Shown here: positions 12,077 through 30,800 of the stretch, in pieces
Layout: every line of letters begins with the position of its first letter
Numbering within the stretch: position 1 is the first letter of the stretch
Assembly (NCBI GenBank): GCA_963846495.1
Contig: CAWJWP010000021.1
Coordinates: 77,185 to 141,184 of the forward strand
Direction: 5' to 3'
From: Thermoanaerobaculia bacterium
GTDB lineage: Bacteria > Acidobacteriota > Thermoanaerobaculia > Multivoradales > JAIOJS01
Length of the DNA: 64,000 bases
The notes under the pieces: model-generated
Told to the model about the DNA's origin: nothing
The model's database searches: none
What the model saw: only the letters and a program-made list of their open reading frames with translations
Translations under genes and position numbers: made by a program

Positions 12077-12601
12077 CTAACCCCGCGGCGGGAACACGCC
12101 CTGGAGGGCGATGCAGAAGTAGAAGGTCAGGTACGGCTGCAAGTTGTTGTGCGGCTGATCGCCACCGGCCGGGGCCAGCGCTTCCGGCGCCATCGTAACC
12201 AGGCCCGCGTTGGAGGGTTGGTAAGCAGTGGCACCTGTGGATGCCGCCAGGCTGGTCTGCGGTCCGGGGCCGAAGAGGTCGGCGGCGTCCGACGACGCGC
12301 GCAAGGCGTGGCTGTGGGACGGGATCTCGGACTCGAGCAGGGTCACGGTCTCGCTGCCGCCGGTCTCGCCCAGGTCGTGCAGCGAGAGGCCGGGCCCCTG
12401 GCCGGGGTGCATCGGCGCCCGGCCCTGGAGGTCGGGGAGGGCGAAGTTGCTCTTGCCGTTGCCGCCATAGGTGGTCCCCAGGAGCGAGAACAGCGCCGTG
12501 TTCTGCGACAGCGGCAGCAACTGCCCGTCGCACCACGCCCAGCCCCGGGGGGCGAAGTTGAACGGGAAGATGCGGATCTCGGCTACGAACGGATCGGCCA
12601 T
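12077..12601 (-). CDS. Phage tail-collar domain protein (microcystin-dependent-protein-like), copy 3
   Basis: FVAEIRIF.FNFAPRGWAWCDGQLL..SQNTALFSLLGTTYGG.G...FALPDLQGR; HSH; C-terminal GVFPPRG. Confidence 0.92.
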   Translation of the reverse strand: MADPFVAEIRIFPFNFAPRGWAWCDGQLLPLSQNTALFSLLGTTYGGNGKSNFALPDLQGRAPMHPGQGPGLSLHDLGETGGSETVTLLESEIPSHSHALRASSDAADLFGPGPQTSLAASTGATAYQPSNAGLVTMAPEALAPAGGDQPHNNLQPYLTFYFCIALQGVFPPRG

Positions 12602-12611
12602 GAGTCTCCTC

Positions 12612-13118
12612 CTAGGTAGGCGACGGGAAGATGCCGAAGAGCGAGATGATGAAGTTGATGCAGAGGTAGGGCTGGAAATTGGTGTGCGGCTGGCTGCCGC
12701 CCACCGGCGAGATCGCCCCTGGGTTCATGTTGACGTTCGGCGGGTCCGCGATGTAGATCGAGATGGTGCCGTCCGTCGTGGAGACGACGTTGGCCGCCGG
12801 ATTGGGAGTCGTACCGGTGCCCGTCGACGCCAGCAGCGGGTGGCTGTGGGCGGGGATCTGGTTCACCGTCAACGTGATCTCTTCGGCGCCGCCGGTCTCG
12901 GCGAGGATGAAGCCGTTGCCCTGGTGGAGTGGGATGCGCCCGCGCAGGTCGGGCAGCGCGAAGGTCGACTCACCGTCGCCGCCGTAGGTGGTGCCGATGA
13001 GCTGGAACAGCGTCTCGTTCTCGCTGATCGGCAGCAGCTGCCCCTCGCAGAACATCCAGCCGGCAGGGGCGAAGTTGCCGGCGAACATGCGGATCTCACC
13101 GACGTAGGGTTGTGCCAT
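12612..13118 (-). CDS. Phage tail-collar domain protein, copy 2
   Basis: YVGEIRMFAGNFAPAGWMFCEGQLL...FALPDLRGR; HSH; C-terminal GIFPSPT. Confidence 0.92.
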   Translation of the reverse strand: MAQPYVGEIRMFAGNFAPAGWMFCEGQLLPISENETLFQLIGTTYGGDGESTFALPDLRGRIPLHQGNGFILAETGGAEEITLTVNQIPAHSHPLLASTGTGTTPNPAANVVSTTDGTISIYIADPPNVNMNPGAISPVGGSQPHTNFQPYLCINFIISLFGIFPSPT

Positions 13119-13131
13119 TGGTCGCTGTCTC

Positions 13132-13632
13132 CTAGTTCGGGCTGGGGAAGATGCCCTGCAGGGCGATGCAGAAGCTGAGGGTGAGGAACGGCTGCATGTT
13201 CAGGTGCGCTTGGCTGCCGCCGACGTTGGTGACCGAGCCCGGCGTCAACGAGGTCAGGGTGTTCGCCGCGTGGTAGGTGTTGTTCACCGGCGCCAGGAAG
13301 GTGTTGGTCGGCAGCGCCTGAGTGCCGGTCGAGGTGGGGGAAGCGTTGAGCACGTGAGTGTGCGTCGGGATCTCGGCGATGCTCAGGGTATGGGCCTGCT
13401 CGCCGCCGCGCTCGCCGAGCGTGTGCCCGCTGCCGACGTGGATCGGCGTGCGGCTGCGCAGGTCGGGCAGCGCGAAGTTCACCCTCCCGTCACCACCGAA
13501 GGTGGTGCCGAGCAGGGAGAACAGCGCCTGGTTCTGGTTGATCGGCAACAGTTGCCCGTTGCACAACGCCCACCCCTTAGGTGCGAACACGAAGCTCATG
13601 ATGCGGATCTCGGACAGGAACGGCTCTGCCAT
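13132..13632 (-). CDS. Phage tail-collar domain protein, copy 1
   Basis: FLSEIRIMSFVFAPKGWALCNGQLL...FALPDLRSR; HTH; C-terminal GIFPSPN; GAAAGGAGGG RBS upstream. Confidence 0.92.
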   Translation of the reverse strand: MAEPFLSEIRIMSFVFAPKGWALCNGQLLPINQNQALFSLLGTTFGGDGRVNFALPDLRSRTPIHVGSGHTLGERGGEQAHTLSIAEIPTHTHVLNASPTSTGTQALPTNTFLAPVNNTYHAANTLTSLTPGSVTNVGGSQAHLNMQPFLTLSFCIALQGIFPSPN

Positions 13633-13725: not shown

Positions 13726-16700
13726 TCAGGGACAGCCCCCGCCGGTGCCGAGCCAGCCGCCGCCGGTGGGGACGGTGTTGGTCGCCGACCCGCTGGGCGC
13801 ACCCGCCGGGTTGTTGTTGTTCTGGGCGAAGGTGACTACCGCGGCGTCGTCGTTGTTGGCGCCGGCGTAGCCGGGGAGGCGGACCGTTGTCGACTGCCGC
13901 TGACGGAGGCGGAAGTCGGTGCCGCCGTCGGTGCCGGAGCCGACGAGGGAGTTCCTCGCCGCGCCCGCGCCGCCGAAGGTGAGGCAGACCTGGTAGGTCT
14001 CGCCGGGGAGCGTGCCGCTGTTGAGCTGGAAGCCGTTCTTGGCAAAGATCATCGTGCCGGGGTTGGTGACGGTGTTGCCGGTCACCGTCGCCTTGAGCGA
14101 GCCGCTGCCGACGGTGGCGGTACCGCCCGCTTGGACGATGATGCCGAAGTTGTTGAACTGGCGGATGGTGTTGCCGGTGATGGTGGTGGTGTGCGAGCCG
14201 GTCTCCGCCAGGATGACCGAGATGCCGGAGCCGGCGGCCGAACCGGAGTTGGCGGTCGCCGCGACGCCGATCTGGTTGCCGCTGATGGTGCCGGTGAAGG
14301 TGCCGGCGCCGGAGCCCTTGGTGACGCCGATGGCCGTGCCATTGGAGTCCCGCATGACGTTGTTCGAGATGTTGTAGGTGGCGGTGGTGTTGCTGCCCGC
14401 CGCGCCTCCCGTCAGGCGAATGCCGCCGCCGCCGCTCACCACGCTGGGGTGCGCGTTGGTGATGATGTTGTTGCTGAAGATGAGGTCGGCGCTGGCGGTG
14501 CCGAGCAGGTTGAGCTGGAAGTGGTCGCCGCGCGAGGAGGTGAAGTCGCCGTTCTGCACGGTGACGTTGGTGACCGCGGTGTTCTGGCCCTCGACGAGGA
14601 TGCCGTCGCTGCCGAAGCCGTTGCTGTTGGCGCCGATCGTCACGTTGTCGAAGGTGATGCGGTTGAGGGTGCCGGTGGTGTTGACGACGGTGAAGTTGTC
14701 CTCGTGGCCGCCGCTGATCGAGCTGTTGGTGACCGAGGCCGAGCCGGTGAGCTCGGTGAAGCGGACCGAGGAGTCGTCGGTGGCGTCGTTGTCGCCGTTG
14801 ACGCCGTTGATGGTGGTGTTGTCCATCGTGAAGTTGACCACCGAGCTGCCGCGGATGGCGAAGTCGGTGAAGTCGTTGAGCTGCATGTCCTCGAGGCTGA
14901 CGTCGCGCGTCGAGGTGAGGCTGATGCCGGTGGCGCAGCGGCGGATGGTGCCGCCGGTGCCGGCGCCGCCGGTGCCCTTCACCTTCAGACCGCCGGAGGC
15001 GCCGGTGGTGTTGAGGAGGATGCCGTTGGTCGGGCCCGAGCCGGGCGTTCCCGCGCTGATGCTGCGGAATTCCAAGTTGTTGGCGCTGATCGTCGTATTG
15101 GCGACGTTGAGCGCGGTGCCGGTGCTGGTGGTGATCGTGTTGACCAGGGCGCCGGTCGCCCCTGGAGCGCAGGGGTTCTCGTCGCAGACCTCGATGGTGC
15201 CGCCGCCGGTGGCGGCGAAGGCAGGCTGGCCGCCGGTGCTGAGGCTGAGGCCGCCGCGGAAGGTGACGGTGGCGCCGGTGTTGGTGGTGAGCGACACGCC
15301 TTGGCCGGTGTCGGTGATCGCACCGGAGAAGGTCACCGTCGAGCCGGTGTCCGCGTTGTTGACGACCACGGAGCGCGCCGTGGCGGAGCTGTTGTTGATG
15401 GTGCCGTTGTAGACGGCGGTCAGCACCGTGGTGCCGGCGGCGCTGTTGTCGATGCCGAAGGCGCGGCCGATGCCGGCGGTCTTGGTGATGGAGCTGCCCG
15501 TGGGGGCGCGGAACTGGCCGGCGACGGTGGTGAAGTCGACGCCCGAGGTGGAGAGGGTGGTCGGCGAGGCGGTGATCTGCGCCAGCCGCAGGTCGATGGT
15601 GGCATTGTCGACCGCGACCGCGGCGCCGTTGTTGCCCACCATCGTGGAGGTGCCGGTGTTGTCCGGCGGTGCCGCCACCACCTGAATGCTGGTCCCTGCC
15701 GCGCCGGTGAAGATGCCGGTGCCGCTCAGGGCGAGAGCGAAGCCGGACGAGAAGACGTCGAGGTCGGTGTAGCTAAGGGCACCGGTGATCCCCGTCATCC
15801 ACAGGCCGCCCTCGTTGAGCCCCGTGCCCACCGGGTTGCCGGACGCGCCGATCACGGTGGTTCCGCCGGCGACGGGTTGCAGGTTGGCGGTGCCGAGATC
15901 GGCGTCGAAGACGGCGGTGGCGACCCGGATGCCCGAGCCGGCGGTGTTCCCGCTCACCACGTTGTCGTCGAAGGTAGTGATGGCGAGGGTGCCGGTGCCG
16001 GTCTCCGCGACGTCGACACCGTTGCCGGTGGCGGTGACGGTGTTGTCGTGCAGCGCCAGCACGCTGTTGCCGGTGCTGTTGATGTTGATGTCGATGCCTT
16101 CCGAGGTGGCGCCGCTGATGATGTCCTCGCTGATCCTGATGCCCACCAGGTTGCCGCCGCTCGAGGTGACGTCGATGGCGTTGGAGGTGGCGCCGGTGGC
16201 GGAGAGGTCGAGGCCGCGGATCTCGACGTTCTGACGGTTACCCGCGGTGGCGGTCACGTTGACCGTGTTGGTGCTCGCCGCGGTGCTCTGGATGCGGGCG
16301 TGGTTGGTGAGCGTCACCACGTTGGGGAAGCCGGGGAGGTCGAGGTCGATGCCCTGGCCCCACAGCTTCTGGCCATCGAGGAGCGAGATGCTGCCGCTGT
16401 GCGGCGTGGCGCCGGTGTTGCCGCGGAAGACGTAGATGAAGTCGCCGTTGTTGGTGGTCGCGGCGTTGAACTCGGCGATGGTGTCGAACGGGTTGTTCGA
16501 GCGGCCGGTGTCGCCGGGGCCCGGGTTGTTGGCATCGACGACGTCATGGATGTACCAGACGCGCGGCCCGACCGCGATGTTGACGGTCTGGTTCGACGGC
16601 GTGACGGTGTCGGTCAGCTGGTAGCCGAAGGTGTCCGCCGCAATGGAGCCCGTGGCGGGCACGAAGTGGAAGTTGCCGTTCGCGTCGATGGTGAAGGGGC

Positions 16701-19700
16701 CGCCGTTGGTCGAGTTGCCGGAGGCGGCGACGACGGTGGCGGCGGCCGGACCATCGGGATCGGTCGGTGCGCACTTGGTGAGGACGGTGACGGGGTCCGG
16801 CCAGAAGGCGACACCCGGGGTGGTGGCGGTCCCGACGTGGAGCTGGGTGTTGCCCGGCGTCGCGTAGTTGACGGTGTTGGTGCACACCGGCGGGTCGTTG
16901 ACCGGCGTCACCGTGACGATCTTGGTGGCGACGTTGCTCGGGTCGGTGCCGTCGTTGACCTGGAAGCTGATGGTGCGGTTCGCCGCGTCCGGCGCCTGGT
17001 CGAGGTTGTTGTAGGTCACCGACTGCAGGCAGGTCTGATAGGTGGCGACCGGTTGGCTGCCGCTGATGTTGAGCGTCGCGGTGCCGGCGCCGCCCACCGT
17101 GAGGCCGGCGCAGGCGGTGAAATTGAGCTGCTCGAAGGCGCCGTCCGGCGGCCCCACGGGAAGGGCGATCGACACCGTCGCCGAGGTGAGGTTGGCGGTG
17201 TCGACGTCGCTCACCGTGACGCCGGCATCGATGACGACCGCGCCGGCGTCCTCGGTGAAGTTGGTGGTACCGCCGGTCGTCGTCACCACCGGCGGGTCGT
17301 TGACCGGCACCACGTCGACGGTCTTGTCGCCGTTGTTGCTGTTGGTGGTGCCGTCGTTGGCGACGAAGCGCACGATGCGGTTGGGCAGGTCGGTGGGGTT
17401 CTGCGAGGTGTTGTTGTAGGTCACCGACTGGAAGCACGTCTGGTAGGTCGCGGGCGGCTGGCTGCCGCTGATGGTGAGCGCGGCCGTGCCGGCGCCGCCC
17501 ACGGTCAGGCCGGCGCAGGAGGTGGCGTTGAGCTGCTCGGCGGCGCCGTTCTGGACGTTGGTGATGGTCACCGTCGCGGAGGCGAGGTTGGTGCTGTCGG
17601 CGTCGGTCACCGTGATGGCGGCGTCGACGACCACGGCACCGCCGTCCTCGGTGAAGGTGGTGATGCCGCCGCTGGGAGTGACCACCGGGCCGTCGTCCTG
17701 CGGCACCACGTCGACGTTCTTGTCGCCGTTGTTGCTGTTGGTGGTGCCGTCGTTGGCGACGAAGCGCACGATGCGGTTGGGCAGGTCGGTGGGGTTCTGC
17801 GAGGTGTTGTTGTAGGTCACCGACTGGAAGCACGACTGGTAGGTCGCCGGCGGCTGGCTACCCGTGATGGTGAGCGTGGAGGTGCCGGCGCCGCCGACGG
17901 TGAGACCCGCGCAGGCACCGGCCGCCAGCTGCTCGGCGGCGCCGTCCTGCACGTTGGTGATCGTCACTGTGGCCGACGCGAGGTTCGTGCTGTCGGCGTC
18001 GGTCACCGTGATGGCGCCGTCGACGACGACCGCGCCACCATCCTCGGTGAAGGTGGTGTTGCCGCCGCTGGGGGTGACCACCGGGCCGTCGTTGACGGGT
18101 ACCACGTCGACGGTCTTGTCGCCGTTGTTGCTGTTGCTGGTGCCGTCGTTGACGACGAAGCGGACGATCCGGTCGGGCAGATCGGTGGGGTTCTGCGACG
18201 TGTTGTTGTAGGTCACCGTCTGGAAGCAGGCCTGGTAAGTCGCCGGCGGCTGGCTGCCGCTGATGCTCAGCGTCGACGTGCCGCCGCCGATCACCGTGAG
18301 GCCGGCGCAGGCGCCGGCTGCCAGCTGCTCGGCGGCGCCGTTCTGGACGTTGGTGATGGTCACCGTCGCCGAGGCGAGGTTGGTGCTGTCGGCGTCGGTC
18401 ACCGTGATGGCGCCGTCGACGACCACCGGTCCGCCGTCCTCGGTGAAGGTGGTGCTGCCGCCGCTGGGGGTGACCACCGGGGCGTCGTCGACGGGCACCA
18501 CGTCGACGGCCTTGTCGCCGTTGTTGCTGTTGCTGGTGCCGTCGTTGGCGACGAAGCGGACGATGCGGTTGGGCAGGTCGGTAGGGTTCTGCGAGGTGTT
18601 GTTGTAGGTCACCGACTGGAAGCAGGTTTGGTAAGTGGCGACCGGCTGGCTGCCGCTGATGGTGAGAGTCGAGGTGCCACCGCCGCCCACCGTCAGGCCG
18701 GCGCAGGAGGTGGCGTTGAGCTGCTCCGCCGCACCGTCCTGCGGGTTGGTGATCGTCACCGTCGCCGAGGCGAGGTTGGTGCTGTCGACGTCGGTCACCG
18801 TGATGGCGCCGTCGACGACCACCGCACCACCATCCTCGGTGAAGGTGGTGTTGCCGCCGCTGGGAGTGACGACCGGTGCATCGTCTTGCGGCACCACGTC
18901 GACGGCCTTGTCGCCGTTGTTGCTGTTGTTGGTGCCGTCGTTGGCGACGAAGCGGACGATGCGGTTGGGCAGGTCGGTCGGGTTCTGCGCGGTGTTGTTG
19001 TAGGTCACCGACTGGAAGCACGCCTGGTAGGTCGCCGGCGGCTGGCTGCCGCTGATGGTGAGCGCGGAGGTACCGGCGCCACCGACGGTGAGGCCGGCGC
19101 AGGCACCCGCCGCCAGCTGCTCGGCAGCGCCGTCCTGCACGTTGGTGATCGTCACCGTCGCCGAGGCGAGGTTGGTGCTGTCGATGTCGGTGACCGTGAT
19201 GGCGCCGTCGACGACGACTGGTCCGCCATCTTCGGTGAAGGTGGTGTTGCCGCCGCTGGGAGTGACCACCGGGGCGTTGTCGACCGGCACCACGTCGACG
19301 GTCTTGTCGCCGTTGTTGCTGTTGAGGGCGCCGTCGTTGACGACGAAGCGGACGACGCGGTCGGGCAGGTCGGTGGGGTTCGGCGAGGTGTTGTTGTAGG
19401 TCACCGATTGCAGGCAGGCCTGGTAGGTCGCGGGCGGTTGGCTGCCGCTGATGTTGAGGGTCGACGTTCCGGCGCCGCCTACGGTCAGGCCGGCGCAGGC
19501 ACCCGCCGCCAGTTGCTCGGCGGCGCCATCCTGCACGTTGGTGATGGTCACCGTCGCCGAGGCGAGGTTGGCGCTGTCGACGTCGGTCACCGTGATGGCG
19601 CCGTCGACGACGACCGCGCCGCCGTTCTCGGTGAAGGTGGTGTTGCCGCCGCTGGGAGTGACCACCGGGGCGTCGTTCTGCGGCACCACGTCGACGGCCT

Positions 19701-21693
19701 TGTCACCGTTGTTGCTGTTGTTGGCGCCGTCGTTGGCGACGAAGCGGATGATGCGGTCGGGCAGGTCGGTGGGGTTCTGCGAGGTGTTGTTGTAAGTCAC
19801 CGTCTGGAAGCACGCCTGATAGGTCGCTGGCGGCTGGGCGCCGGTGATGGTGAGCGTGGCGGTGCCGGCGCCACCGACGACGAGGCCGGCGCAGGCACCC
19901 GCCGCCAGCTGCTCGGCACCGACGTCCTGCACGTTGGTGATCGTCACCGTCGCCGAGGCGAGGTTCGGATCGTCGGCGTCGGTCACCGTGATGCCGGCGT
20001 CGACGACCACCGGTCCGCCATCCTCGGTGAAGGTAGTGGTGCCGGCGCTGGGCGTGACCACCGGAGCGTCGGGGTTGGGAGCGATGGTCACCGTCTTGTC
20101 GCCGTTGTTGCTGTTGAGAGCGCCGTCGTTGGCGACGAAGCGGATGACACGGTCGGGCGCGGTCGTCGGGTTCTGCGACGTGTTGTCGTAGGTCACCGAC
20201 TGGAAGCACGCCTGATAGGTCGCGGGCGGCTGGGCGCCGCTGATGGTGAGCGCCCCGGTGCCGGCGCCACCGACCGTCAGGCCGGCGCAGCTGGTGGCGT
20301 TGAGCACCTCGGCGGCACCGTCCTGCACGTTGGTGATCGTCACCGTCGCCGAGGCGAGGTTCGGACTGTCGACATCGGTCACCGTGATGCCGGCGTCGAC
20401 GACGACGGGCCCGCCGTCTTCGGTGAAGGTGGTGTTGCCGGCCGTCGGCGTCACCACCGGCGCGTCGTTGCCCGGCGCCACCGTCACGGTCTTGTCGCCA
20501 TTGTTGCTGTTGGCGGAACCGTCGTTGGCGACGAAGCGCACCACGCGCGACGGCGCCGCGGTGGGGTTCTGCGAGCTGTTGTCGTAGGTGACCGACTGGA
20601 AGCAGGTTTGATAAGTCGCCGGCGGCTGGCTGCCGGTGAGGGTGAGCGTGGCGGTGCCGGCGCCGCCGACGGTGAGGCCGGCGCAGGCCGTCGCGTTGAG
20701 TATCTCGGCGGCGCCGTCCTGCGGATTGGTGATCGTCACCGTTGCCGAGGCGAGGTTGGGACTATCGGTGTCGGTCACCGTGACGCCGCCGTCGACGACG
20801 ACCGGGCCGCCGTCCTCGGTGAACGGCGTGCTGCCGGCCGTCGTGGTGACGACGGGCGGCGTGTTGAACAGCAGCGAGGCGTCGATGCGGAAGTAGACCT
20901 GCGTCGCCGGGACGTCAGTCCGTGCGTAGAGCGACGCGATGTCGTCGCCGTCGTTCGTGGCGCTGGGGTCATGGGCGACGCGGAAACCGATCGGCCACTC
21001 GTCGAGGGTGTTGCCGTCGAGGTCCCCGAGTAGGGCAAAGGCCGCGCCGCCGGCGCAGAGCACCAGCGCCACGGTCAGCAAGGCGCGCCGAGGCCGCCGC
21101 CGTAGCTTGAGCGTCGCCGCGCCGGCCAGCAGCAGCAACAGGACGAGCAAGCCCCACTGCCCGAGCGTCGGGATCTCGGCGACACTGCCGGTGATGAAGA
21201 ATTGGATCGGCGCCCCGTTGGCCGTGCCGTCGGTCGTGAACAGGGTGTCGCTGCCGCCGTTGGCGTTCTGCGCGAAGGCCCCGATGCGGATGCACCGACG
21301 CTGCTGCTCGTTCTGGCAGGGATGAAGGGGCGGCGGCGGAAGGGAAGCCGGGATCGGCCAGTAGGTCTCGACGACGTTGAAGCCGGGGAGGTCGCCGTTG
21401 CCGATGCCGACCGGATGGTCGGTGCCGTCGAAGAAGACCTGCGTGTTGCTGCAGTCGAATCCCTCGATCTGCGTCACCATCGCGGCGTTGGGCCCGGTCG
21501 TGGTGTCGACCGTGGTGACCACGCGCTGGTCGTAGCCCATGAAGCCGGAGGCGAAGTCGTTGCACCCCGTTGCCGGATCGTTGTCGAAGTCGATGAAGAT
21601 GGTGAGGTCCGACTGCACCGCGGCCGCGGGAGCGGCGGCGACGATCGTGACCAGGGCGGCGAACAGGGCACGGACGAGCGGGATGCGTCTCAT
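13726..21693 (-). CDS. Giant surface adhesin-like protein (2655 aa): signal peptide, N-domain, internal IPTL motif + two hydrophobic helices, ten Ig/cadherin-like repeats, beta-helix C-terminal region
   Basis: Long uninterrupted ORF with GGAGGG RBS; IPTLGQWGLLVLLLLLAG..RRR at about aa 174; 132-aa FTEDGG...RFVANDG repeats; Thr/Gly/Asn-rich beta-helix tail. Confidence 0.9.
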   Translation of the reverse strand: MRRIPLVRALFAALVTIVAAAPAAAVQSDLTIFIDFDNDPATGCNDFASGFMGYDQRVVTTVDTTTGPNAAMVTQIEGFDCSNTQVFFDGTDHPVGIGNGDLPGFNVVETYWPIPASLPPPPLHPCQNEQQRRCIRIGAFAQNANGGSDTLFTTDGTANGAPIQFFITGSVAEIPTLGQWGLLVLLLLLAGAATLKLRRRPRRALLTVALVLCAGGAAFALLGDLDGNTLDEWPIGFRVAHDPSATNDGDDIASLYARTDVPATQVYFRIDASLLFNTPPVVTTTAGSTPFTEDGGPVVVDGGVTVTDTDSPNLASATVTITNPQDGAAEILNATACAGLTVGGAGTATLTLTGSQPPATYQTCFQSVTYDNSSQNPTAAPSRVVRFVANDGSANSNNGDKTVTVAPGNDAPVVTPTAGNTTFTEDGGPVVVDAGITVTDVDSPNLASATVTITNVQDGAAEVLNATSCAGLTVGGAGTGALTISGAQPPATYQACFQSVTYDNTSQNPTTAPDRVIRFVANDGALNSNNGDKTVTIAPNPDAPVVTPSAGTTTFTEDGGPVVVDAGITVTDADDPNLASATVTITNVQDVGAEQLAAGACAGLVVGGAGTATLTITGAQPPATYQACFQTVTYNNTSQNPTDLPDRIIRFVANDGANNSNNGDKAVDVVPQNDAPVVTPSGGNTTFTENGGAVVVDGAITVTDVDSANLASATVTITNVQDGAAEQLAAGACAGLTVGGAGTSTLNISGSQPPATYQACLQSVTYNNTSPNPTDLPDRVVRFVVNDGALNSNNGDKTVDVVPVDNAPVVTPSGGNTTFTEDGGPVVVDGAITVTDIDSTNLASATVTITNVQDGAAEQLAAGACAGLTVGGAGTSALTISGSQPPATYQACFQSVTYNNTAQNPTDLPNRIVRFVANDGTNNSNNGDKAVDVVPQDDAPVVTPSGGNTTFTEDGGAVVVDGAITVTDVDSTNLASATVTITNPQDGAAEQLNATSCAGLTVGGGGTSTLTISGSQPVATYQTCFQSVTYNNTSQNPTDLPNRIVRFVANDGTSNSNNGDKAVDVVPVDDAPVVTPSGGSTTFTEDGGPVVVDGAITVTDADSTNLASATVTITNVQNGAAEQLAAGACAGLTVIGGGTSTLSISGSQPPATYQACFQTVTYNNTSQNPTDLPDRIVRFVVNDGTSNSNNGDKTVDVVPVNDGPVVTPSGGNTTFTEDGGAVVVDGAITVTDADSTNLASATVTITNVQDGAAEQLAAGACAGLTVGGAGTSTLTITGSQPPATYQSCFQSVTYNNTSQNPTDLPNRIVRFVANDGTTNSNNGDKNVDVVPQDDGPVVTPSGGITTFTEDGGAVVVDAAITVTDADSTNLASATVTITNVQNGAAEQLNATSCAGLTVGGAGTAALTISGSQPPATYQTCFQSVTYNNTSQNPTDLPNRIVRFVANDGTTNSNNGDKTVDVVPVNDPPVVTTTGGTTNFTEDAGAVVIDAGVTVSDVDTANLTSATVSIALPVGPPDGAFEQLNFTACAGLTVGGAGTATLNISGSQPVATYQTCLQSVTYNNLDQAPDAANRTISFQVNDGTDPSNVATKIVTVTPVNDPPVCTNTVNYATPGNTQLHVGTATTPGVAFWPDPVTVLTKCAPTDPDGPAAATVVAASGNSTNGGPFTIDANGNFHFVPATGSIAADTFGYQLTDTVTPSNQTVNIAVGPRVWYIHDVVDANNPGPGDTGRSNNPFDTIAEFNAATTNNGDFIYVFRGNTGATPHSGSISLLDGQKLWGQGIDLDLPGFPNVVTLTNHARIQSTAASTNTVNVTATAGNRQNVEIRGLDLSATGATSNAIDVTSSGGNLVGIRISEDIISGATSEGIDININSTGNSVLALHDNTVTATGNGVDVAETGTGTLAITTFDDNVVSGNTAGSGIRVATAVFDADLGTANLQPVAGGTTVIGASGNPVGTGLNEGGLWMTGITGALSYTDLDVFSSGFALALSGTGIFTGAAGTSIQVVAAPPDNTGTSTMVGNNGAAVAVDNATIDLRLAQITASPTTLSTSGVDFTTVAGQFRAPTGSSITKTAGIGRAFGIDNSAAGTTVLTAVYNGTINNSSATARSVVVNNADTGSTVTFSGAITDTGQGVSLTTNTGATVTFRGGLSLSTGGQPAFAATGGGTIEVCDENPCAPGATGALVNTITTSTGTALNVANTTISANNLEFRSISAGTPGSGPTNGILLNTTGASGGLKVKGTGGAGTGGTIRRCATGISLTSTRDVSLEDMQLNDFTDFAIRGSSVVNFTMDNTTINGVNGDNDATDDSSVRFTELTGSASVTNSSISGGHEDNFTVVNTTGTLNRITFDNVTIGANSNGFGSDGILVEGQNTAVTNVTVQNGDFTSSRGDHFQLNLLGTASADLIFSNNIITNAHPSVVSGGGGIRLTGGAAGSNTTATYNISNNVMRDSNGTAIGVTKGSGAGTFTGTISGNQIGVAATANSGSAAGSGISVILAETGSHTTTITGNTIRQFNNFGIIVQAGGTATVGSGSLKATVTGNTVTNPGTMIFAKNGFQLNSGTLPGETYQVCLTFGGAGAARNSLVGSGTDGGTDFRLRQRQSTTVRLPGYAGANNDDAAVVTFAQNNNNPAGAPSGSATNTVPTGGGWLGTGGGCP
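16900..20860 (-). repeat. Ten tandem ~396-bp (132-aa) intragenic repeats
   Basis: Ten successive PVVT..FTE(D/N)(G/A)G units counted in the translation; shadow ORFs on the + strand recur at 396-bp spacing. Confidence 0.9.
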
Positions 21694-21956
21694 CGATCAC
21701 CCTCCAGAGTCCGGTGGCGGACGCGCGATGCAGCCGAGGTTGTGGTACTTCGTCTCGCTTCCTTTGCGGGTGGCCGCGGGCAGTCACATGGGTCTGCCGC
21801 GGGCCCGTTTCGGGGTGGCGAGCTGTGTTGTGATCCGGGTTTACCCTAGCAGATCACCGCGCAAGAGTGGTAATCGGCGCGGATTTCCGAGGCTCGGGCC
21901 GGGGGGCGAGGGTCCGCGGCGGGAGCGCTGCCGCCGCGGACCCGGAGAGCGATCTG

Positions 21957-22505
21957 TCAGGCGATGGCGCCGGAGTGACCGGCGAGCCGGCGGAGCAGAG
22001 CGGTCTGGCCGATGTGGTAGCCCTCGTGGAAGGCGAGCTTCGCGATCAGGCTGCCGACCGTCTCGTTGGGGTCGTTCGCGGGGCTGAACGGCGCGCGCTC
22101 GGCGAGCCGCTCGGCGGTGAGGCGCGACAGCGCGGCGGTGAGCGGGCCCTGCGCGCGGTCGTAGGCGGCGAGCAACTCTTCGAAAGGCAGCGCCAGCGTG
22201 CCGTCGGTGAGCGGATCGGAGCCGCGGCGATAGCGGGCGATCGTGTCGGCGTCGAAGAGCGGCGCCTCGCCGAGCACTGCGGTCAGCCACAGTTGGCGCG
22301 CGAAGACGATGTGGCCGAGCACCCAGTTGAGGCAGTTGCCACCGGGCTGCGGTTGGCCGAGGCTCTCGTCATGCGTCAGCCCTTTGACGTTGGCGTGCAG
22401 CGCGAAGTGCTCGAAGGCGAGCTGCACGAGCAAGGGCTCGACGAACGGCTGCGGCTTCGTTTCGCTGGACGCGGGCGGGGCGGTCTCGAGCATCGGCGTG
22501 GTCAC
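21957..22505 (-). CDS. DinB family protein
   Basis: GGNCLNWVLGHI and FHEGYHIGQ..LLRR histidine motifs; GTGA overlap with the marR-type gene. Confidence 0.88.
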   Translation of the reverse strand: MTTPMLETAPPASSETKPQPFVEPLLVQLAFEHFALHANVKGLTHDESLGQPQPGGNCLNWVLGHIVFARQLWLTAVLGEAPLFDADTIARYRRGSDPLTDGTLALPFEELLAAYDRAQGPLTAALSRLTAERLAERAPFSPANDPNETVGSLIAKLAFHEGYHIGQTALLRRLAGHSGAIA

Positions 22506-22957
22506 GATTCCTCTCCTTTGCGTAGGTCGACCCCGGTCACCGCGCCGAGGGTGTCGAGGACGGCGCGGAAACCGGCGAGGTCGCGTTGCGGAAGACGCCG
22601 GAGCACCTCGGCCTCCAGCACATCGATCTCCTTGCGAAGGGCGGCGGCGATCTCCTCGCCGGCGCCGGTGAGCTCGACGAGGAAGGAGCGGCGGTCGTCG
22701 GGATTGAGGCGGCGGCGGAGCAGCTCGCGCTCCTCGAGCCGGTCGAGCATGCTGGTGAGCGTCGAGCCCTTGAGCCCGAAGATGCGGCCGAGGTCGCCGA
22801 CGGCGGCGGGGGAGTAGCTGGCGACGTAGGTGAGCAGGTGTCCCTCCTGCGGCAGCACGCCGAGCGCTGTACAGCGGGCCTCGAGATAAGTGCCGATCTG
22901 CCGCGACGCGCGATGGATGGGGGAGAGCAGCTGGAGCGGTGGGCGGCGCGGTTTCAT
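22502..22957 (-). CDS. MarR family transcriptional regulator
   Basis: STLTSMLDRLEERELLRR..NPDDRRSFLVELT..G winged-helix motif. Confidence 0.92.
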   Translation of the reverse strand: MKPRRPPLQLLSPIHRASRQIGTYLEARCTALGVLPQEGHLLTYVASYSPAAVGDLGRIFGLKGSTLTSMLDRLEERELLRRRLNPDDRRSFLVELTGAGEEIAAALRKEIDVLEAEVLRRLPQRDLAGFRAVLDTLGAVTGVDLRKGEES

Positions 22958-22962
22958 TTCGA

Positions 22963-22998
22963 TTTCGGATTATGCGAAAACGTAATATGTGGCGTCAA
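22963..22998 (-). promoter_or_regulatory. Sigma70-like promoter of marR-dinB with overlapping inverted repeat (candidate MarR operator)
   Basis: Minus strand TTGACG-N18-CATAAT, 11 nt before the ATG; palindrome TTTCG-N7-CGAAA spans the -10 box; AT-rich patch in GC-rich DNA. Confidence 0.55.
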
Positions 22999-23060
22999 GA
23001 CCCCCCCGCGACGCGATTTGCGGGTTGACGCATGCACGCCCAGCGGTGCTCGCATGTAGC

Positions 23061-24260
23061 ATGGTCGTCGTGCGCCCGCGGAGCCGGCTCGTGCTTGCCG
23101 CATCGCTGCTCGCCGCCGGCAGCGCGCTCGGCTGCGCGTCGCGCCGCGCTCCGGTAGTCGTCGACGCCGGCATCGTGCCAGTGGAGCAGCCGGCGGGCGC
23201 CGAGACGAGCCCGGTGCCAACGAGCACGCCGATGGCGACCGAGCCGACGACCGCTTCGCCGGCGGAGTCGACGACCCCGACGCCGGTGCCCGCCCCCGAG
23301 ACCGAGCCGACGACTGGTGTCGCGCAGCCGCAGCAGCAGAAGACCTCGCTGCACGAGCTCTGTCACCAGGACCCGGCGTCCGGCTTCATCAACGAGAGCC
23401 GCCGTCTGCTCGCGGAGACTTTTTGTGGGGCCACGCTCTGGTTCGACGGCCTCTTCGGCGGCACTCCCGACGTCAGGAATGCCCGCGCGACGTCGGGGCG
23501 GATCGAGCTCTCGGGTCTGCATACCGACTTTCACGGCTTCGACGAAAGGGTTCGGCTGCGCGTCAATTACGACCTGCCGAACATGGAGCGCCGGGTGCGT
23601 CTCGTGCTCGGCCGCGACGACCCCGAGGTCATCAAGACCGACCGCCAGGAGGGGTTCGCCATCCGTTCGGCGGTGTTCGGGCTGGAGGACCGCGACGAGT
23701 GGTTGGCGGGCCTCGGCTATCGGCCCCCTGGCCGCTATCTCGAGCGCGTCGACTTCGGCGTCGGAGCGCGGGTGAAGACCTCGCCCGAGGTGTTCGTGCA
23801 GGGCCGTTACCGGCGCAACTTCTTCCTCGGCCGCGACGACGTCTGGCGCTTCCGCGAGACGGTGTTCTGGGAGAACCGCGACGGCTTCGGCTCCACCACC
23901 AGCCTCGACTGGGACCGCGTGCTGCGCCGTGACCTGCTCGTGCGCTGGGGCAACGTCGGCACGATATCGGAGGCGACCGAGGGGCTCGAGTGGCGCTCCG
24001 CATTGGTGCTCTACCACAACCTCCGCGACTGGCGCGCCATCGCCGGTGAGTCCTTCTGGCGCGGCGCCACCGGCGCCGAGGTGAAACTGCGCGAGGTCGG
24101 GATCCGCGGGATCTACCGCCACCCGCTGCAGGCGCCGCACCTGTTCGGCGACGTCATCGTCGGCTACACCTGGCCGCGTGAGGAGCCGCACCAGAAGCGC
24201 GAGGGCTCGCTGATGGTGGGCATCGGCTTCGAGCTGCTCTTCGGCCAGCAGCCTTATTAG
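23061..24260 (+). CDS. Putative lipoprotein with Pro/Thr linker and probable outer-membrane beta-barrel
   Basis: Lipobox-like SALG-C; PTPVPAPETEPT linker; alternating amphipathic strands ending ..VGIGFELLF. Confidence 0.6.
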   Translation: MVVVRPRSRLVLAASLLAAGSALGCASRRAPVVVDAGIVPVEQPAGAETSPVPTSTPMATEPTTASPAESTTPTPVPAPETEPTTGVAQPQQQKTSLHELCHQDPASGFINESRRLLAETFCGATLWFDGLFGGTPDVRNARATSGRIELSGLHTDFHGFDERVRLRVNYDLPNMERRVRLVLGRDDPEVIKTDRQEGFAIRSAVFGLEDRDEWLAGLGYRPPGRYLERVDFGVGARVKTSPEVFVQGRYRRNFFLGRDDVWRFRETVFWENRDGFGSTTSLDWDRVLRRDLLVRWGNVGTISEATEGLEWRSALVLYHNLRDWRAIAGESFWRGATGAEVKLREVGIRGIYRHPLQAPHLFGDVIVGYTWPREEPHQKREGSLMVGIGFELLFGQQPY

Positions 24261-24363: not shown

Positions 24364-25923
24364 ATGGCAGAGCCGGTCGTGATCGAGAGCTACGTCGAGG
24401 ATCGCTGGGTGACGGGCGAGGGCGAAGGCGCGCCGCTGGTCAACCCAGCGACCGGCGAGGTGCTGGCAACGGCGTCGACGGCCGGCATCGACCTCGGCGC
24501 GGCGCTGCGCCACGCGCGCGACGTGGGCGGGCCGGCGTTGCGCGCACTCGGCTTCGCGCAACGCGCGGCGATCCTGAAGACGCTCGCCGGCATCATCCGC
24601 GAACACCGCGACGTGCTGCTCGACGTCGCCATGCGCAACGGCGGCAATACGAAAGGTGACGCCAAGTTCGACGTCGACGGCGCCAGCGGCACGCTCGCTT
24701 TCTACGCCAACCTCGGCCGCGGCCTTGGCGAAGCGCGCTACCTGCTCGACGGCGAGCTGGTGCCGCTCGGGCGTGCGACGCCGTTCGCCGGCCGGCACCT
24801 GTGGGTGCCGCGACGCGGCGCGGCGGTGCTCGTCAACGCGTACAACTTCCCGGCCTGGGGCTTCGCGGAGAAGGTCGCCTGCGCGTTGCTCGCCGGCATG
24901 CCGGTGGTGGTCAAGCCGGCGACGCAGACGGCGCTCGTGGCGTGGCGGATCGCGCAGCTCTTCGTGCAAAGCGGCGCGCTGCCGCGCGGCAGCTGGACGT
25001 TCCTCGCCGGTCCCGCCGGCGACCTGCTCGACCACCTCGAGGCGCAAGACGTGCTCGCCTTCACCGGCTCGGCGGCGACCGGCGCCAAGATGCGCTCGCA
25101 CCCGCGCGTGCTCGCGAAGGGCGTGCGCGTCAACGTCGAGGCCGACTCGTTGAACGCCGCCGTCCTCGGCCCCGACGTCGCGCCGGGCGCGCCGACCTGG
25201 GAGCTGTTCGTCAAGGAAGTCGTGCACGAGATGACGCAGAAGGCGGGGCAGAAGTGCACCGCCACGCGGCGCGTCTTCGTGCCGCGCGAGCGGCTCGACG
25301 AAGCACGCGCGGCGCTGGTCGAGCGGCTGGCGCAGGTTCGCGTCGGCGATCCGCTCGACGAAGCAGTGGGCATGGGCCCGGTGGTGAGCGCGGGTCAGCG
25401 GCGCGACGTCGAAGCAGGCGTCTCGACACTCGTCGCGAACGCCGAGGTCGCGTGGCAAGGCGAAGCGCCGGATGAGCACGGCTTCGTGGCGCCGCGCCTG
25501 CTGGTCGCGAACGATCCGCGTGCGGCAGCCGAGGTGCACCGACGTGAAGTGTTCGGCCCCGTGGCGACGTTGATGCCTTACGACGGCAGCGCCGAAGAGG
25601 CCGGCGAGCTCGTGGGGCTGGGCGAAGGTTCGTTGGTGTCGAGCGTCTACTCAGACGACGGCACGTTCGTCGCCGCTGCGGTGCTGGCGATGGCGCCCTA
25701 CAACGGCCGCGTCCACGTCGGCACCGGCGACGTGGCGGCGGAATCGCTAGGGCCCGGCACGGTGCTGCCAGGATTGGTGCATGGCGGGCCCGGCCGTGCC
25801 GGCAGCGGCGAGGAGCTCGGCGGCATCCGCGGGCTGCACCACTTCATGCAGCGCACCGCCGTGCAAGGACCCAAGTCGGCGCTCGAGCACATCGCCGCGG
25901 AAGCGATCGCGCCGCCGGCGTGA
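24364..25923 (+). CDS. 3,4-dehydroadipyl-CoA semialdehyde dehydrogenase (BoxD) / PaaZ-type aldehyde dehydrogenase lacking the MaoC domain
   Basis: NAYNFPAWG..EK, FTGSAATG, VEADSLN, EMTQKAGQKCTA, EVFGPV, HGGPGRAG.GEELGG. Confidence 0.85.
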   Translation: MAEPVVIESYVEDRWVTGEGEGAPLVNPATGEVLATASTAGIDLGAALRHARDVGGPALRALGFAQRAAILKTLAGIIREHRDVLLDVAMRNGGNTKGDAKFDVDGASGTLAFYANLGRGLGEARYLLDGELVPLGRATPFAGRHLWVPRRGAAVLVNAYNFPAWGFAEKVACALLAGMPVVVKPATQTALVAWRIAQLFVQSGALPRGSWTFLAGPAGDLLDHLEAQDVLAFTGSAATGAKMRSHPRVLAKGVRVNVEADSLNAAVLGPDVAPGAPTWELFVKEVVHEMTQKAGQKCTATRRVFVPRERLDEARAALVERLAQVRVGDPLDEAVGMGPVVSAGQRRDVEAGVSTLVANAEVAWQGEAPDEHGFVAPRLLVANDPRAAAEVHRREVFGPVATLMPYDGSAEEAGELVGLGEGSLVSSVYSDDGTFVAAAVLAMAPYNGRVHVGTGDVAAESLGPGTVLPGLVHGGPGRAGSGEELGGIRGLHHFMQRTAVQGPKSALEHIAAEAIAPPA

Positions 25924-25929
25924 ACGCGA

Positions 25930-26766
25930 TCAGCCGCTGATCCGCTCGACGCCGCAGTAGACGTTGCAGCGGCCGTCGCGTACGAAGCCGACGACCGTCA
26001 TCCCCGCACGCGCCGCGAGTCGCAGCGCGAGCGTCGATGGTGCGCCGACGGCGACCAAGATCGGAATGCCGGCGCGCAACGCCTTCTGCACGATCTCGAA
26101 GCCGATGCGGCCGGAAACGGCGAGGGCGCTCTCGCTCGCGGGCAGACGTTCAGCCAGAAAGAGCGCGCCGACGACTTTGTCGACCGCATTGTGGCGGCCG
26201 ATGTCCTCCCGCGACAGCCGCAGCTCGCCTCGCGAGTCGAACAGCGCCGCCGCGTGGATGCCGCCGGTAGCGGCGAACAGCTCCTGAGCCGGTGCCATGC
26301 GGCGCGGCAGATCGAGAAGAAGCGACAGCGCAATGCGAGGACCTTCAGGAAGCGGTGGGAAACCACTTGCAAAAACCGCGTCGACGGAGGCCTTGCCACA
26401 GAGCCCACAGGCGGCGGTGGAGAGAAACGGCCGCGCGCTCAAGTTCGCGCTGCCGGAGGTCGCGCCGCCGTCTCGCGAGGCGATGCGCGCGATGACTCGG
26501 CTGCCGGGCGCTTCGCCGGCTGCCGACTCTTCGAGGGCAAGCAGATCGGCGGGCCACTCGACGATCCCTTCCGCGTAAAGCAGCCCGGCCGCCAGCTCGC
26601 GGTCATGACCGGGTGTGCGCAGCGTCACCGCCAGCGGCGCCGGCGGACCGTCACCTGCGGCGACTCGGATCTCCAACGGCTCCTCGATCGCCACCGGATC
26701 GGCGAGCTCGCCACGGACGCCGTCGACGAACAACGTCGTCGGCCACGATTCCGCGCCGCCGGACAT
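25930..26766 (-). CDS. fdhD: Formate dehydrogenase accessory sulfurtransferase FdhD
   Basis: EEPLEI, RTPGHD.ELAAG, ACGLCG, F.ATGGIHAA, EDIGRHNAVDK, SGRIGFEIVQK. Start codon uncertain. Confidence 0.93.
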   Translation of the reverse strand: MSGGAESWPTTLFVDGVRGELADPVAIEEPLEIRVAAGDGPPAPLAVTLRTPGHDRELAAGLLYAEGIVEWPADLLALEESAAGEAPGSRVIARIASRDGGATSGSANLSARPFLSTAACGLCGKASVDAVFASGFPPLPEGPRIALSLLLDLPRRMAPAQELFAATGGIHAAALFDSRGELRLSREDIGRHNAVDKVVGALFLAERLPASESALAVSGRIGFEIVQKALRAGIPILVAVGAPSTLALRLAARAGMTVVGFVRDGRCNVYCGVERISG

Positions 26767-26925
26767 GACGGCGCACCGTAGCATGCGCGCCGAGGCGCGC
26801 TCCGCTGCACTTGACATTCGTTTGGGCCGCGGAGGCCAGGAAGTGGAGCGCCGGGCGGGGCGAGTTCTCCCGCCCGGCACAAAGACGGAGTACGCGCCGC
26901 GCGCGGCGTCCCCGCACGCAGAGCA

Positions 26926-27820: not shown

Positions 27821-30800
27821 TCAGCCTCCGAGGGCCTGGAACAGCGCCCAGGTGGCGGGAGAGCGAAGCGAGTCGTCGCCGCTGGCGAGCAGCGCGAGCT
27901 GGGCGCGGCGCAGCGCGATGGCTGGCTCGGCTCCGGCGCTGAGCTGCGCGTGGACGCGGGTCAGCAACTCGACGCTGCGGCGGTCGCCAATCGGCCACAG
28001 CGACGCCACCACGGTTGGCACCCCGGAGGCGAGGAAAGCTCGAGGCAGGCTCAAGCGCCCGGCTACGGAGGCCGCCAGTGGGTCTGGCGCTCCGCCGCAG
28101 GCTGCCAGCACCACGGTCCGCGTGCCGGCGAGGTCGAGCGAGCGAATTTCGTCGGCGCGCAAAACGCTGCCGTGGACGCTGTCGTGCGCATCGGCGAGCG
28201 CGAGGGCGGAGTGTGCTGGATAGGAGTCGTCGATCAGCGCGTGGGTCGCCAGGTGGACGATCGTGTGCTGGCCCACGGCGTTGACCAGGCTGTCGCGGGT
28301 CGCCTGCCGACCGACGACCAGCGTCGCCACCGGATAGAAACCGGCGACTCGCCGGGCTTCCATAGCCGCGCCGGGCAGCCGTTGCATGCCTTGGAACTGC
28401 CGGCCGTCCAGCTCGGGATCGCCAATGGCCAACACGTTCGGATCGTCACCGCTCAGCTCGCGCCAGCGCTGGCGCGCACGCAGATACGAAGCGACGCCCG
28501 GTGCGATTTCGACTTCCCGCTGCTCGATCAGGTATCCGCGGTCACCGATCAGCGCCGCGAAGGGTACGGCGTGAAGCTCCTTGTCGGGAACGATGACCAG
28601 CCGATGGGTGGCGGCGTCGATCTGCAACGGCTCGATGAGCACGCGGTACAACAGTTTCGCGGCCGCGGCCGTCCGCACGTTCCATTCGCGCGCTGCGAGG
28701 TCGGCATCGAGGACGGCGATAGCACCCGAGATACGAGAACGAGCCGCCGGTATCTCGACCACGCGCGCGCCGCGCTCGTCGAAGCGCCAGGCCAGCACGC
28801 GGCTTTCCAGCATCGCGAAAGAGACCAACGCCGTACCGCCGGCGAGGCCTTGGGCGACGCTTCCCACGCTCACCGCCCTGCCGGTGCCAAGGGGGCTCAG
28901 CTGCAACTCGCGATCTCTTCCGCGCTCGCTCCACGCGAAGGCGCTGTCCGGTCGCCGGCGGTCGAGCTCGATCCGGATCATTTCGTCGTAGAGCCCGCGG
29001 CCATCGTCGAGACGTGCGAGCCAGACGTCGTCTTCCGGCGCCAGCAGCGGCTGGCTCTCCAGTAACGCGATACCGCGACGCAGGTCGCGCTCCGCTGCGG
29101 CGAGATCTCCTCCGGCGCGATGAGCGCGAGCCCGTTGCAACAGCAGTCCCGGCAGGCGCGAGTCCGCCTTCAGCGAGGTAAAGACGTCGAGCGCACGCGA
29201 CAGCGCGGCCACGGCCAGCCGCGGCGTGGAGGCGATCGCGCCGCGGCTGGCGGCCAGCTCGGCGCCGAGTCGCCGCCGGACCGACGGATCCTCGAGTGAG
29301 CGGACGGCGAGGGCGGCGCGAGCCAGCTCCTGCTCGGCGGCGCTGCTACGACCCAGCTGCCGGTGCAGGCGAGCGCGCCAGAGCTGCAGCTCGGCGCGCT
29401 CGAACGGCTGCAGCGGTAGGTCTGCCTGCTCGATCTCGTCGAGCAGCGCCTCGGCGAGCCAGGGGCGGCCGCCGAGCAGGCTCGCAATCGCCGATCCGAT
29501 CAGAATGCCGTAACGACGCTTCGGATCCTGCAGCTTCGGCACCAGCTCCAAAGCCGCGGCTCGGTGCTGCCAGGCCCGACGGTGATCGCCGGCGTCGGCA
29601 TGCGCCTCGCTGAGCAGGTAATGCAACCAGGCAGTCGGCTCGGTCTCGCCCAACCGCTGGTGGAGCGAAAGCGCCGACGTGAAATGGCGGAGCGCCGCGG
29701 CGGCCCAACCGCGATTCGTCGCGATCAGCCCGCGAATCCAGGCGATGCGCGCCTGCGTGGCGAGATCGGCGCCGGTCATCCTCTCGCGAGCGTCGAACGC
29801 TACGAGCGTGGCATCCGTGGCACCCGTCTCCGCAAAGTCACAGACGAGCAGCTCCACCTCGGCGCGGCGCTTGCCGACGCTGGTCGCCGGGAACGACGCC
29901 AACGCATGGCGGAGCTCGCGGCGCGCCGTCGCCACTTGATAGGCAGAGAGTGCCGTCTCGCCAGCGGCGAGGGCGCGATGCGCGACGGCGAGCCGTCGGG
30001 CGGTCTCACCGGTTGCCGAGGCAACCTCGACAACCTGATCGCGAAGCCGGTGATCGTGAGTCTGTGCGGAGTAGTGACGCGCGATTGCTGCGGCGGTGGC
30101 AAGTGGGGCTCGACTCTCTTCGACCGACGCCGTCAACAGTGCTTCGGCCCAAGCGGGGAGCAGTGTCAGCTCGACTAGCCGCCGCGCGGTGAAGCGATGC
30201 TCCGCGACCAGAGGTCCCAGACTGCGGTCATCTTGGGCCGCGTGCCTCCGCAGTGCGTCCGTCGCATCGACGTGTGCCTGCGCTTTGCCGTCCAAGAGCT
30301 CGGCCAGGTGCCGACGCCCTTCCGCCGCCCAGTCGCGATCGGTCTCGGCGGCGAGGTAATCCTCCCAGGCCCGTCGCGCTTGCCCGCCGAGATGGAGGCC
30401 TTGCAGAGCGAGCGCGCGGTTGAATCGTGCTTCGAGGAGGCCAGGTTCGGAGGCCAGCGCTGCGGACGCCGTCTCGACGGCTGCGGCGAGGTCGGCGGTC
30501 TGTTCTTGCCGTTGGGATCGTGCGATGTAGGCGGCGGCGAGATCGCTCTGCAAGCGAGGCTCGGAGGGCTCGGCGGCGAGCGCCCGCGCCAGCGTGATCA
30601 GCGCCGAGTCGACGTCGCCGGTGAGAAGGTGCGCATCTGCCAACGCCCCCAGGCGCTCCGCAGTCGGCGAATCGGCTGCCACACGACGGACCTTGGCCGC
30701 AGCTTCGTAGTACTCCCAGGGCACCGGTGGCGAAGGCGGCGACGTAAGCGCGCGTGTGGTCTCCACTGAGCCCGTCCAGCGAAAGCCGCCGGTGAGCCGC

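Follow-up and report, generated by a model that had tools for sequence, protein, structure and literature searches.

A 64,000-nucleotide stretch of contig CAWJWP010000021.1 from a soil bacterium of the Thermoanaerobaculia (Acidobacteriota; "the window" below means this whole stretch) carries on its minus strand a gene for a giant, putative surface protein of 2655 residues, in which a sorting signal of the IPTL type lies close to the amino terminus and is followed immediately, in the same frame, by a second hydrophobic helix that resembles a signal peptide. The reading that we favour, with moderate confidence, is that the first 285 residues form a conserved "mid-cut" head, i.e. one beta-sandwich interrupted by a cassette of sorting signal and return helix, and that this head serves as an N-terminal processing and anchoring module. 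The gene and the parts of its head are as follows.

13726..21693, minus strand: whole gene of the giant putative surface protein, 2655 residues; one open frame with the ATG at 21693 and the stop at 13726-13728.
21616..21693, minus strand: signal peptide 1, residues 1-26, MRRIPLVRALFAALVTIVAAAPAAA and then VQS; cleavage site placed by eye.
21175..21615, minus strand: N-half of the putative split beta-sandwich, residues 27-173 (147 residues), with invariant D35, C44, C81 and E109.
21085..21174, minus strand: internal XrtH-type sorting signal, residues 174-203, IPTLGQWGLLVLLLLLAGAATLKLRRRPRR, recognised by its matches to TIGR04174 and PF18203 and by its conservation.
21034..21084, minus strand: return helix, or second signal-peptide-like helix, residues 204-220, ALLTVALVLCAGGAAFA, with a putative signal peptidase I site after A220.
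20839..21033, minus strand: C-half of the putative split beta-sandwich, residues 221-285 (LDG..EW ... VYFRIDA), recognised by conserved residues and predicted pairing with the N-half.

The initial annotation of this DNA had described an internal IPTL signal at about residue 174, followed in frame by a second signal-like helix and with no stop in between. This description proved correct, as all of these elements lie in the single frame of 2655 residues (window 21034-21174), and the region 21030-21180 that it gave is accurate because it covers codons 172-222. The sorting signal (residues 174-203) is tripartite, being composed of IPTLGQWG, an 18-residue hydrophobic stretch (helix 1) and the basic cluster KLRRRPRR. 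Straight after the second helix comes LLGDLDGNTLDEW, again in frame and without a stop, and about 2430 residues more. Helix 1, the basic cluster and helix 2 are together referred to here as the hairpin.

Three family profiles recognise this region with different strength. TIGR04174 (IPTL_CTERM) matched residues 174-200 with 26.0 bits when the 233-residue N-terminal piece was scanned and with 22.0 bits in the whole protein (cut-off 20.5), while the Pfam match to PF18203 was borderline (21.7 and 19.0 bits, respectively; cut-off 20.8); in a genome-wide TIGR04174 scan, the giant protein stood at the top of 7 IPTL matches, with 30.2 bits. The stronger family match of the hairpin is NF033207, the "midcut-by-XrtH protein", with 39.8 bits for the N-terminal piece, 35.5 bits for the whole protein and 41.4 bits in the genome scan, all below the 45-bit cut-off. 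This match covers the hairpin alone (residues 161-221 against profile positions 24-82, i.e. 59 of the 175 positions), and by curated thresholds the giant protein is not a member of NF033207. Because a family named "midcut-by-XrtH" exists, the idea of a mid-protein XrtH signal had already been named by curators. The layout is already catalogued, and what we describe resembles NF033207, a kind known in silico only; our literature search found no paper on XrtH, on IPTL-CTERM processing or on "midcut". The likeness extends to an internal XrtH-type IPTL-like motif, a helix, a basic cluster and then a second hydrophobic helix. In one genome of the same genus, a paralog scores just over the NF033207 cut-off (45.7 bits), and a full-length member (on contig G014:C6) reaches 92.9 bits over profile positions 9-174, although it differs in having about 15 residues between signal peptide and motif and an unrelated tail. 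Compared with NF033207 as it is known from its name and profile, the cassette described here splits a predicted beta-sandwich, and the proteins at whose head it stands are up to about 3000 residues long.

The kinship with the ordinary IPTL-CTERM/XrtH system (TIGR04174, PF18203, TIGR04177, NF041730) comprises the motif-helix-arginine design, an N-terminal signal peptide (assigned by eye), a cognate exosortase H (XrtH) with its associated protein, and six ordinary substrates in the same genome. The difference is one of location, as the signal occupies residues 174-200 of 2655 and is followed by 2455 residues, instead of lying at the C-terminus, where IPTL-CTERM signals are described to lie.

The machinery that could act on such a signal is encoded in the genome, whose assembly is 7.05 Mb long, in 42 contigs and 90.5% complete. 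Exosortase H was found on contig C3 (TIGR04177, 117.7 bits; cut-off 86), directly adjoined by the XrtH-associated membrane protein (NF041730, 35.9 bits; cut-off 35). The six other IPTL-type tails encoded there are of the ordinary kind, with the frame ending 1-9 residues past the basic cluster, and their motif equals that of the giant protein, which alone within its genome carries the signal internally according to the genome scan. XrtH is likewise present in all 23 related genomes that bear the module, in one of them as a split match (G005:C2:2676341-2676797; same genus, genome 69% complete), where two adjacent pieces, scoring 71.9 and 38.1 bits, are both sub-threshold. The split points to a frameshift or a misassembly in that xrtH; the giant mid-cut protein of the same genome is intact. 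Apart from XrtH, the genome of the window encodes a second exosortase (locus L011, G000:C33:48661-52413), nearest to XrtQ with 139 bits, far below the 270-bit cut-off. Upstream of it lies a gene for a 347-residue protein with a PEP-CTERM-type tail (...IPEPSTVALMVVVAALLAGAAWRRRR...), and the two may be a dedicated pair of enzyme and substrate.

Continuity of the frame was assessed in metagenomic contigs and in related genomes. Contigs of three other soil metagenome runs cross codons 197-206 (record 9 of X2, which is identical, record 11 of X3, and records 4 and 7 of X1), and none of these bridging contigs has a stop or an indel within 21030-21180. The listed indels are just two (at 21385 and 21624, in one contig each); among the variants listed over 20700-21700, 25 of 40 are synonymous and none creates a stop. 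One further contig, record 12 of X3, was set aside, as it consists of two short matching pieces with 129 other letters between them and probably belongs to another organism's IPTL protein. When 61 related genomes were searched with the first 300 residues as the query, the N-half, hairpin and C-half were spanned without a stop in 23 of them, representing many families of the order and mostly in frames of 2000-3000 residues (the same-genus orthologs have 2914 and 2999); the layout was stop-free in all 20 loci fetched from these genomes, and no two-gene version occurred among the module-spanning matches.

A profile search over a library of 1.84 billion representative proteins, of which the 150 best matches were assessed, gave a similar picture, in that 41 of these 150 carry the complete head with its hairpin at their N-terminus. 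The 15,744 profile matches at E ≤ 0.001 are mostly due to the repeat part of the protein and are not a measure of family size. Close relatives come from Thermoanaerobaculia / Acidobacteriota metagenome-assembled genomes, and among 251 genomes sampled evenly across the phylum (best 9 candidates per genome scored) the full head was confined to the window's own order (4 genomes). The layout is more than chance: what the initial annotation had noticed in a single protein is conserved in homologs, and the lost stop codon that it had named as a way in which its reading might fail is excluded by the bridging contigs and the related genomes.

The conserved positions of the head fall within the elements outlined above. 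The basic-hydrophobic-polar (n-h-c) build of signal peptide 1 is kept in all 20 aligned homologs. Across the 20 rows of this head alignment, P175 is invariant and T176, R199 and G216 occur in at least 90% of rows, so that the motif residues P175 and T176 are the best-conserved part of the hairpin; A220 likewise occurs in at least 90% of rows and becomes invariant once the alignment is trimmed. After helix 2, G227, R269 and D271 are invariant, and D226 and W233 occur in at least 90% of rows.

Helix 2 itself shows, by pattern counts, the n-h-c build of a signal peptide, with a basic RRRPRR, the core ALLTVALVLCAGG and a terminal AAFA. Its homologs could be compared in 60 of 61 head sequences that were successfully parsed (7 duplicate others and a few are mis-parsed). 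The motif reads IPTL in 39 of these 60 and differs from it by one letter in the others. The two helices are separated by a basic loop with a median of 6 residues, and the second hydrophobic stretch, whose median length is 19 residues, closes with a small-x-small triplet. Alanine occupies position -1 in 53 of the 60 and an aromatic residue position -2 in 50, and position -3 is small or aliphatic in all 60, where it has to be mentioned that the -3 and -1 classes were fixed by the search pattern and are not independent. A conserved DG follows 3-5 residues downstream of the triplet in 50 of 60 heads, and glycine at -5 (G216) is nearly invariant. By this pattern argument, helix 2 has the build of a signal peptidase I substrate.

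Structure predictions bear on the relation between the two flanks of the hairpin. The AlphaFold2 model of the 340-residue head (mean predicted local distance difference test score, pLDDT, of 77; predicted template modelling score of 0.69) shows confident beta structure on both sides of the hairpin (most of residues 30-120 exceed a pLDDT of 90), and the hairpin itself as two antiparallel helices, 179-196 and 201-222. When residues 27-173 and 221-300 were submitted as separate chains to complex prediction, the median of the interface score ipSAE was 0.69, and the best of three controls gave 0.00. Of 80 solved complexes, 58 attain this ipSAE mark, as do 2 of 110 mismatched pairs; these counts are rough for the present case, in which an own alignment was used. 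Contacts agreed between runs to at least 89%, with a partner pLDDT of at least 62. The predicted interface comprises about 190 contacts, strand 106-112 runs antiparallel to 265-272, the N-half meets residues 225-277, and the chain ends that flank the hairpin (residues 163-167 and 225-229) lie within the interface. Because the complex prediction supports binding, each flank of the hairpin appears to be one half of a single beta-sandwich, into a loop of which the hairpin is inserted. A Foldseek search of the 340-residue head model against the PDB returned nothing at E ≤ 0.001, and in a wide VIA-align search with the same model the helical hairpin alone was matched (Z at most 5.9).

Natural homologs without the hairpin were found in addition. 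In P0117 (3956 residues, on two contigs) and in proteins of three genomes of a sister family, both helices are absent and the two halves are directly joined, and an arginine run is kept in the short linker (...GRRRA...). The linker variants seen in L074, L075, L076 and P0117 are PLRRRAMGPGG, PGRRRAVNPGG, KLGRRRVAGVPG and PGRHHAVS; the basic run would be either a relic of the cytoplasmic arginine cluster or a separate processing site. At the other extreme, one related genome encodes proteins of about 300 residues made up of the N-half, the hairpin and the C-half, with the chain ending there; two of these lie in tandem. As such stand-alone modules exist, the head is an autonomous module to which giant passengers were added. 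Within the 150 best representatives, every protein found to have the N-half also bears the C-half. The prediction of one sandwich, the natural hairpin-less joins and the stand-alone modules of 300 residues go beyond the layout already catalogued.

For topology, both cleavages, transfer to an acceptor and surface location, we infer the following course of events. Signal peptide 1 would be removed while the Sec system exports the N-half, until helix 1 stops the transfer and leaves the arginine cluster in the cytoplasm. Helix 2 would then restart export, now of the C-half and the passenger of about 2370 residues, and the two halves may fold into one sandwich on the hairpin, at the outer face of the inner membrane. 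XrtH would cut at the IPTL motif and presumably hand the new C-terminus to an envelope acceptor, and signal peptidase I probably cuts after A-F-A220. Because XrtH and signal peptidase I would both cut, the hairpin would be excised, and the adhesin would remain fixed by its split N-terminal domain, the halves of which hold together through non-covalent strand complementation, and would point outward with its distal end. If the split-domain reading is true, a signal of the C-terminal type anchors a giant adhesin by its N-terminal end, i.e. with reversed polarity.

Several points weigh against this proposal. The NF033207 score is below the cut-off and the match reaches about a third of the profile (59 of 175 positions), and the giant gene is unlinked to xrtH (contig C21 as opposed to C3). 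Co-occurrence of XrtH and the module says little, because XrtH is common in the order (over the cut-off in 45 of the 61 related genomes, including 23 of the 38 without the module) and kin are not independent. An A-x-A with a conserved tryptophan or phenylalanine at -2 could equally mark the end of a helix at the membrane interface. The complex prediction is a matter of model confidence and not a measurement, and a wide VIA-align search with the model of a hairpin-less homolog gave weak beta-sandwich matches, the best with Z of 5.1 (root-mean-square deviation 7.2 over 138 aligned residues); further weak fold matches of that model, to C2, CBM9 and glucodextranase-type domains, had Z of 3.6-4.9, and many of them span both halves. 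The cassette is not obligatory for the domain, because hairpin-less homologs occur in XrtH-bearing genomes (XrtH was found in 5 of 5 searched genomes of the hairpin-less sister family, the three mentioned above included). The literature search gave no measured cleavage, modification or surface location for any XrtH substrate, and the route of a chain of about 2400 residues across the outer membrane is left unexplained by the model.

The initial annotation had gone further and proposed a surface polyprotein, in which the hairpin gives rise to two independent products, a small IPTL-anchored protein of 147 residues and a released protein of 2430 residues. The internal signal, the second, signal-peptide-like helix and the presence of XrtH in the genome, on which that idea was built or which agree with it, stand. 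There is also a precedent, as viral glycoprotein precursors of the bunyavirus Gn-Gc type have a membrane helix and, after it, an internal signal peptide at which export of the downstream part starts anew and signal peptidase cuts. The FbcH cytochrome b-c1 precursor of Bradyrhizobium is built and cut likewise. Unlike the present case, these precursors give separate proteins, and no sortase-type enzyme is known to take part. What found no support is the independence of the two products: the flanks share about 190 contacts in what is predicted as a single domain, they adjoin each other in hairpin-less homologs, the N-half accompanies the C-half throughout the best 150 representatives, the proteins of about 300 residues are two halves and a hairpin and nothing else, and a two-gene version was absent from the module-spanning matches. 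We thus consider the polyprotein unlikely.

It is improbable, too, that the hairpin is a permanent anchor, i.e. an uncleaved tether in the inner membrane with the IPTL-like motif as a structural element or an inactive relic, even though the two helices (179-196 and 201-222) form a regular antiparallel pair in the AlphaFold2 model, the gene is unlinked to xrtH and cleavage is itself deduced. Against such a role speak the invariant P175, the T176 present in at least 90% of rows and the identity of the motif with that of the genome's ordinary IPTL tails; in helix 2, glycine at -5 and alanine at -1 show the conservation of a peptidase site, and an inner-membrane tether fits poorly with a repeat-built, adhesin-like body of 2400 residues in a diderm.

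Exosortases are transpeptidases by analogy with sortases, and one may imagine that XrtH joins the C-terminus of the N-half to the amino terminus made by signal peptidase, which would act as the nucleophile, so that the hairpin is excised and the chain re-ligated in a kind of enzyme-driven protein splicing at the membrane. The product would equal the hairpin-less homologs, which show that a continuous chain is viable, and both chain ends (163-167 and 225-229) lie in the predicted interface. Nevertheless, this spliced product is without precedent, and non-covalent association explains the same observations more simply, which makes it very unlikely in our view. A milder form of this idea, which we consider possible although less likely than not, does without ligation; strand complementation between the C-half and an N-half anchored by XrtH would then be all that keeps the adhesin on the cell. 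Finally, an artefact peculiar to this genome (a lost stop, a join made in assembly, or an IPTL-CTERM gene recently fused to the one after it) can practically be dismissed. IPTL tails do usually end genes, and six do so in this genome, but the open layout recurs in 23 of 61 related genomes and 41 of the best 150 representatives, and the junction is crossed by independent contigs that have neither a stop nor an indel there and whose variants are mostly synonymous.

A substrate with its sorting signal within a small, autonomously folding module makes a compact test object for exosortase chemistry. There is also a consequence for annotation, since proteins with this head are named solely after their repeats and the head falls just under the NF033207 cut-off. 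Homologs are named "tandem-95 repeat protein" or "VCBS repeat-containing protein", names that cover the passenger only and not the head module. In its passenger, the protein resembles giant repeat adhesins (cadherin-like / Big_9 / "tandem-95 repeat"), with a body of 9.6 repeats of 132 residues and a cadherin-like/Big_9 domain. The remaining features of the gene are as follows.

21701..21705, minus strand: Shine-Dalgarno-like GGAGG, 7 nucleotides 5' of the ATG, found by sequence inspection.
17005..20823, minus strand: stalk or adhesin body, 9.6 tandem copies of a 396-nucleotide (132-residue) repeat with 85% matches.
16576..16926, minus strand: bacterial cadherin-like / Big_9 Ig-like domain, about residues 1590-1706 (PF17803, 28.9 bits; PF17963, 25.5 bits).
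13729..16506, minus strand: C-terminal 926 residues, rich in Gly, Asn and Thr and ending ...GTGGGCP with Cys 2654; no family match.

The initial annotation had also seen no recognisable anchor at the true C-terminus. This holds in so far as the last 926 residues contain no Pfam or NCBIfam family and no known sorting signal (a beta-helix there would be our guess). It needs to be qualified by a shared cysteine: complete homologs have one within about 14 residues of the stop (...GGGCP, ...GTCPQP, ...GAACPTP), which here lies in window 13729-13740, minus strand. This terminal-cysteine motif was seen in about 19 of 43 homolog sequences examined, the remaining ones looking truncated or frameshifted, and its carriers include P0035, P0090, P0110-P0112, P0131, P0132, P0143, P0150 and the hairpin-less P0117. 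The cysteine could form a capping disulfide or be a site of modification.

As for translation from within the gene, reading of the sequence around helix 2 revealed TTG and GTG codons and no Shine-Dalgarno-like sequence upstream of them. Opposite the giant gene, an antisense open frame of 2300 residues runs through window 14131-21033 on the plus strand; most likely it is no gene in its own right but the shadow of a GC-rich, repetitive one. The three neighbouring open reading frames (12471-13178, 21867-22817 and 22989-24260) match no Pfam or NCBIfam family, and as they lie on the other strand, the giant gene has no operon partner. Farther away, there are housekeeping neighbours, an aldehyde dehydrogenase (24364-25923, plus strand) and FdhD/NarQ (25930-26880, minus strand), and then, in window 27821-31183 (minus strand), a gene whose 1120-residue product has a zinc finger of the anti-sigma type (zf-HC2) at its N-terminal end and a CHAT protease domain at its C-terminal end.

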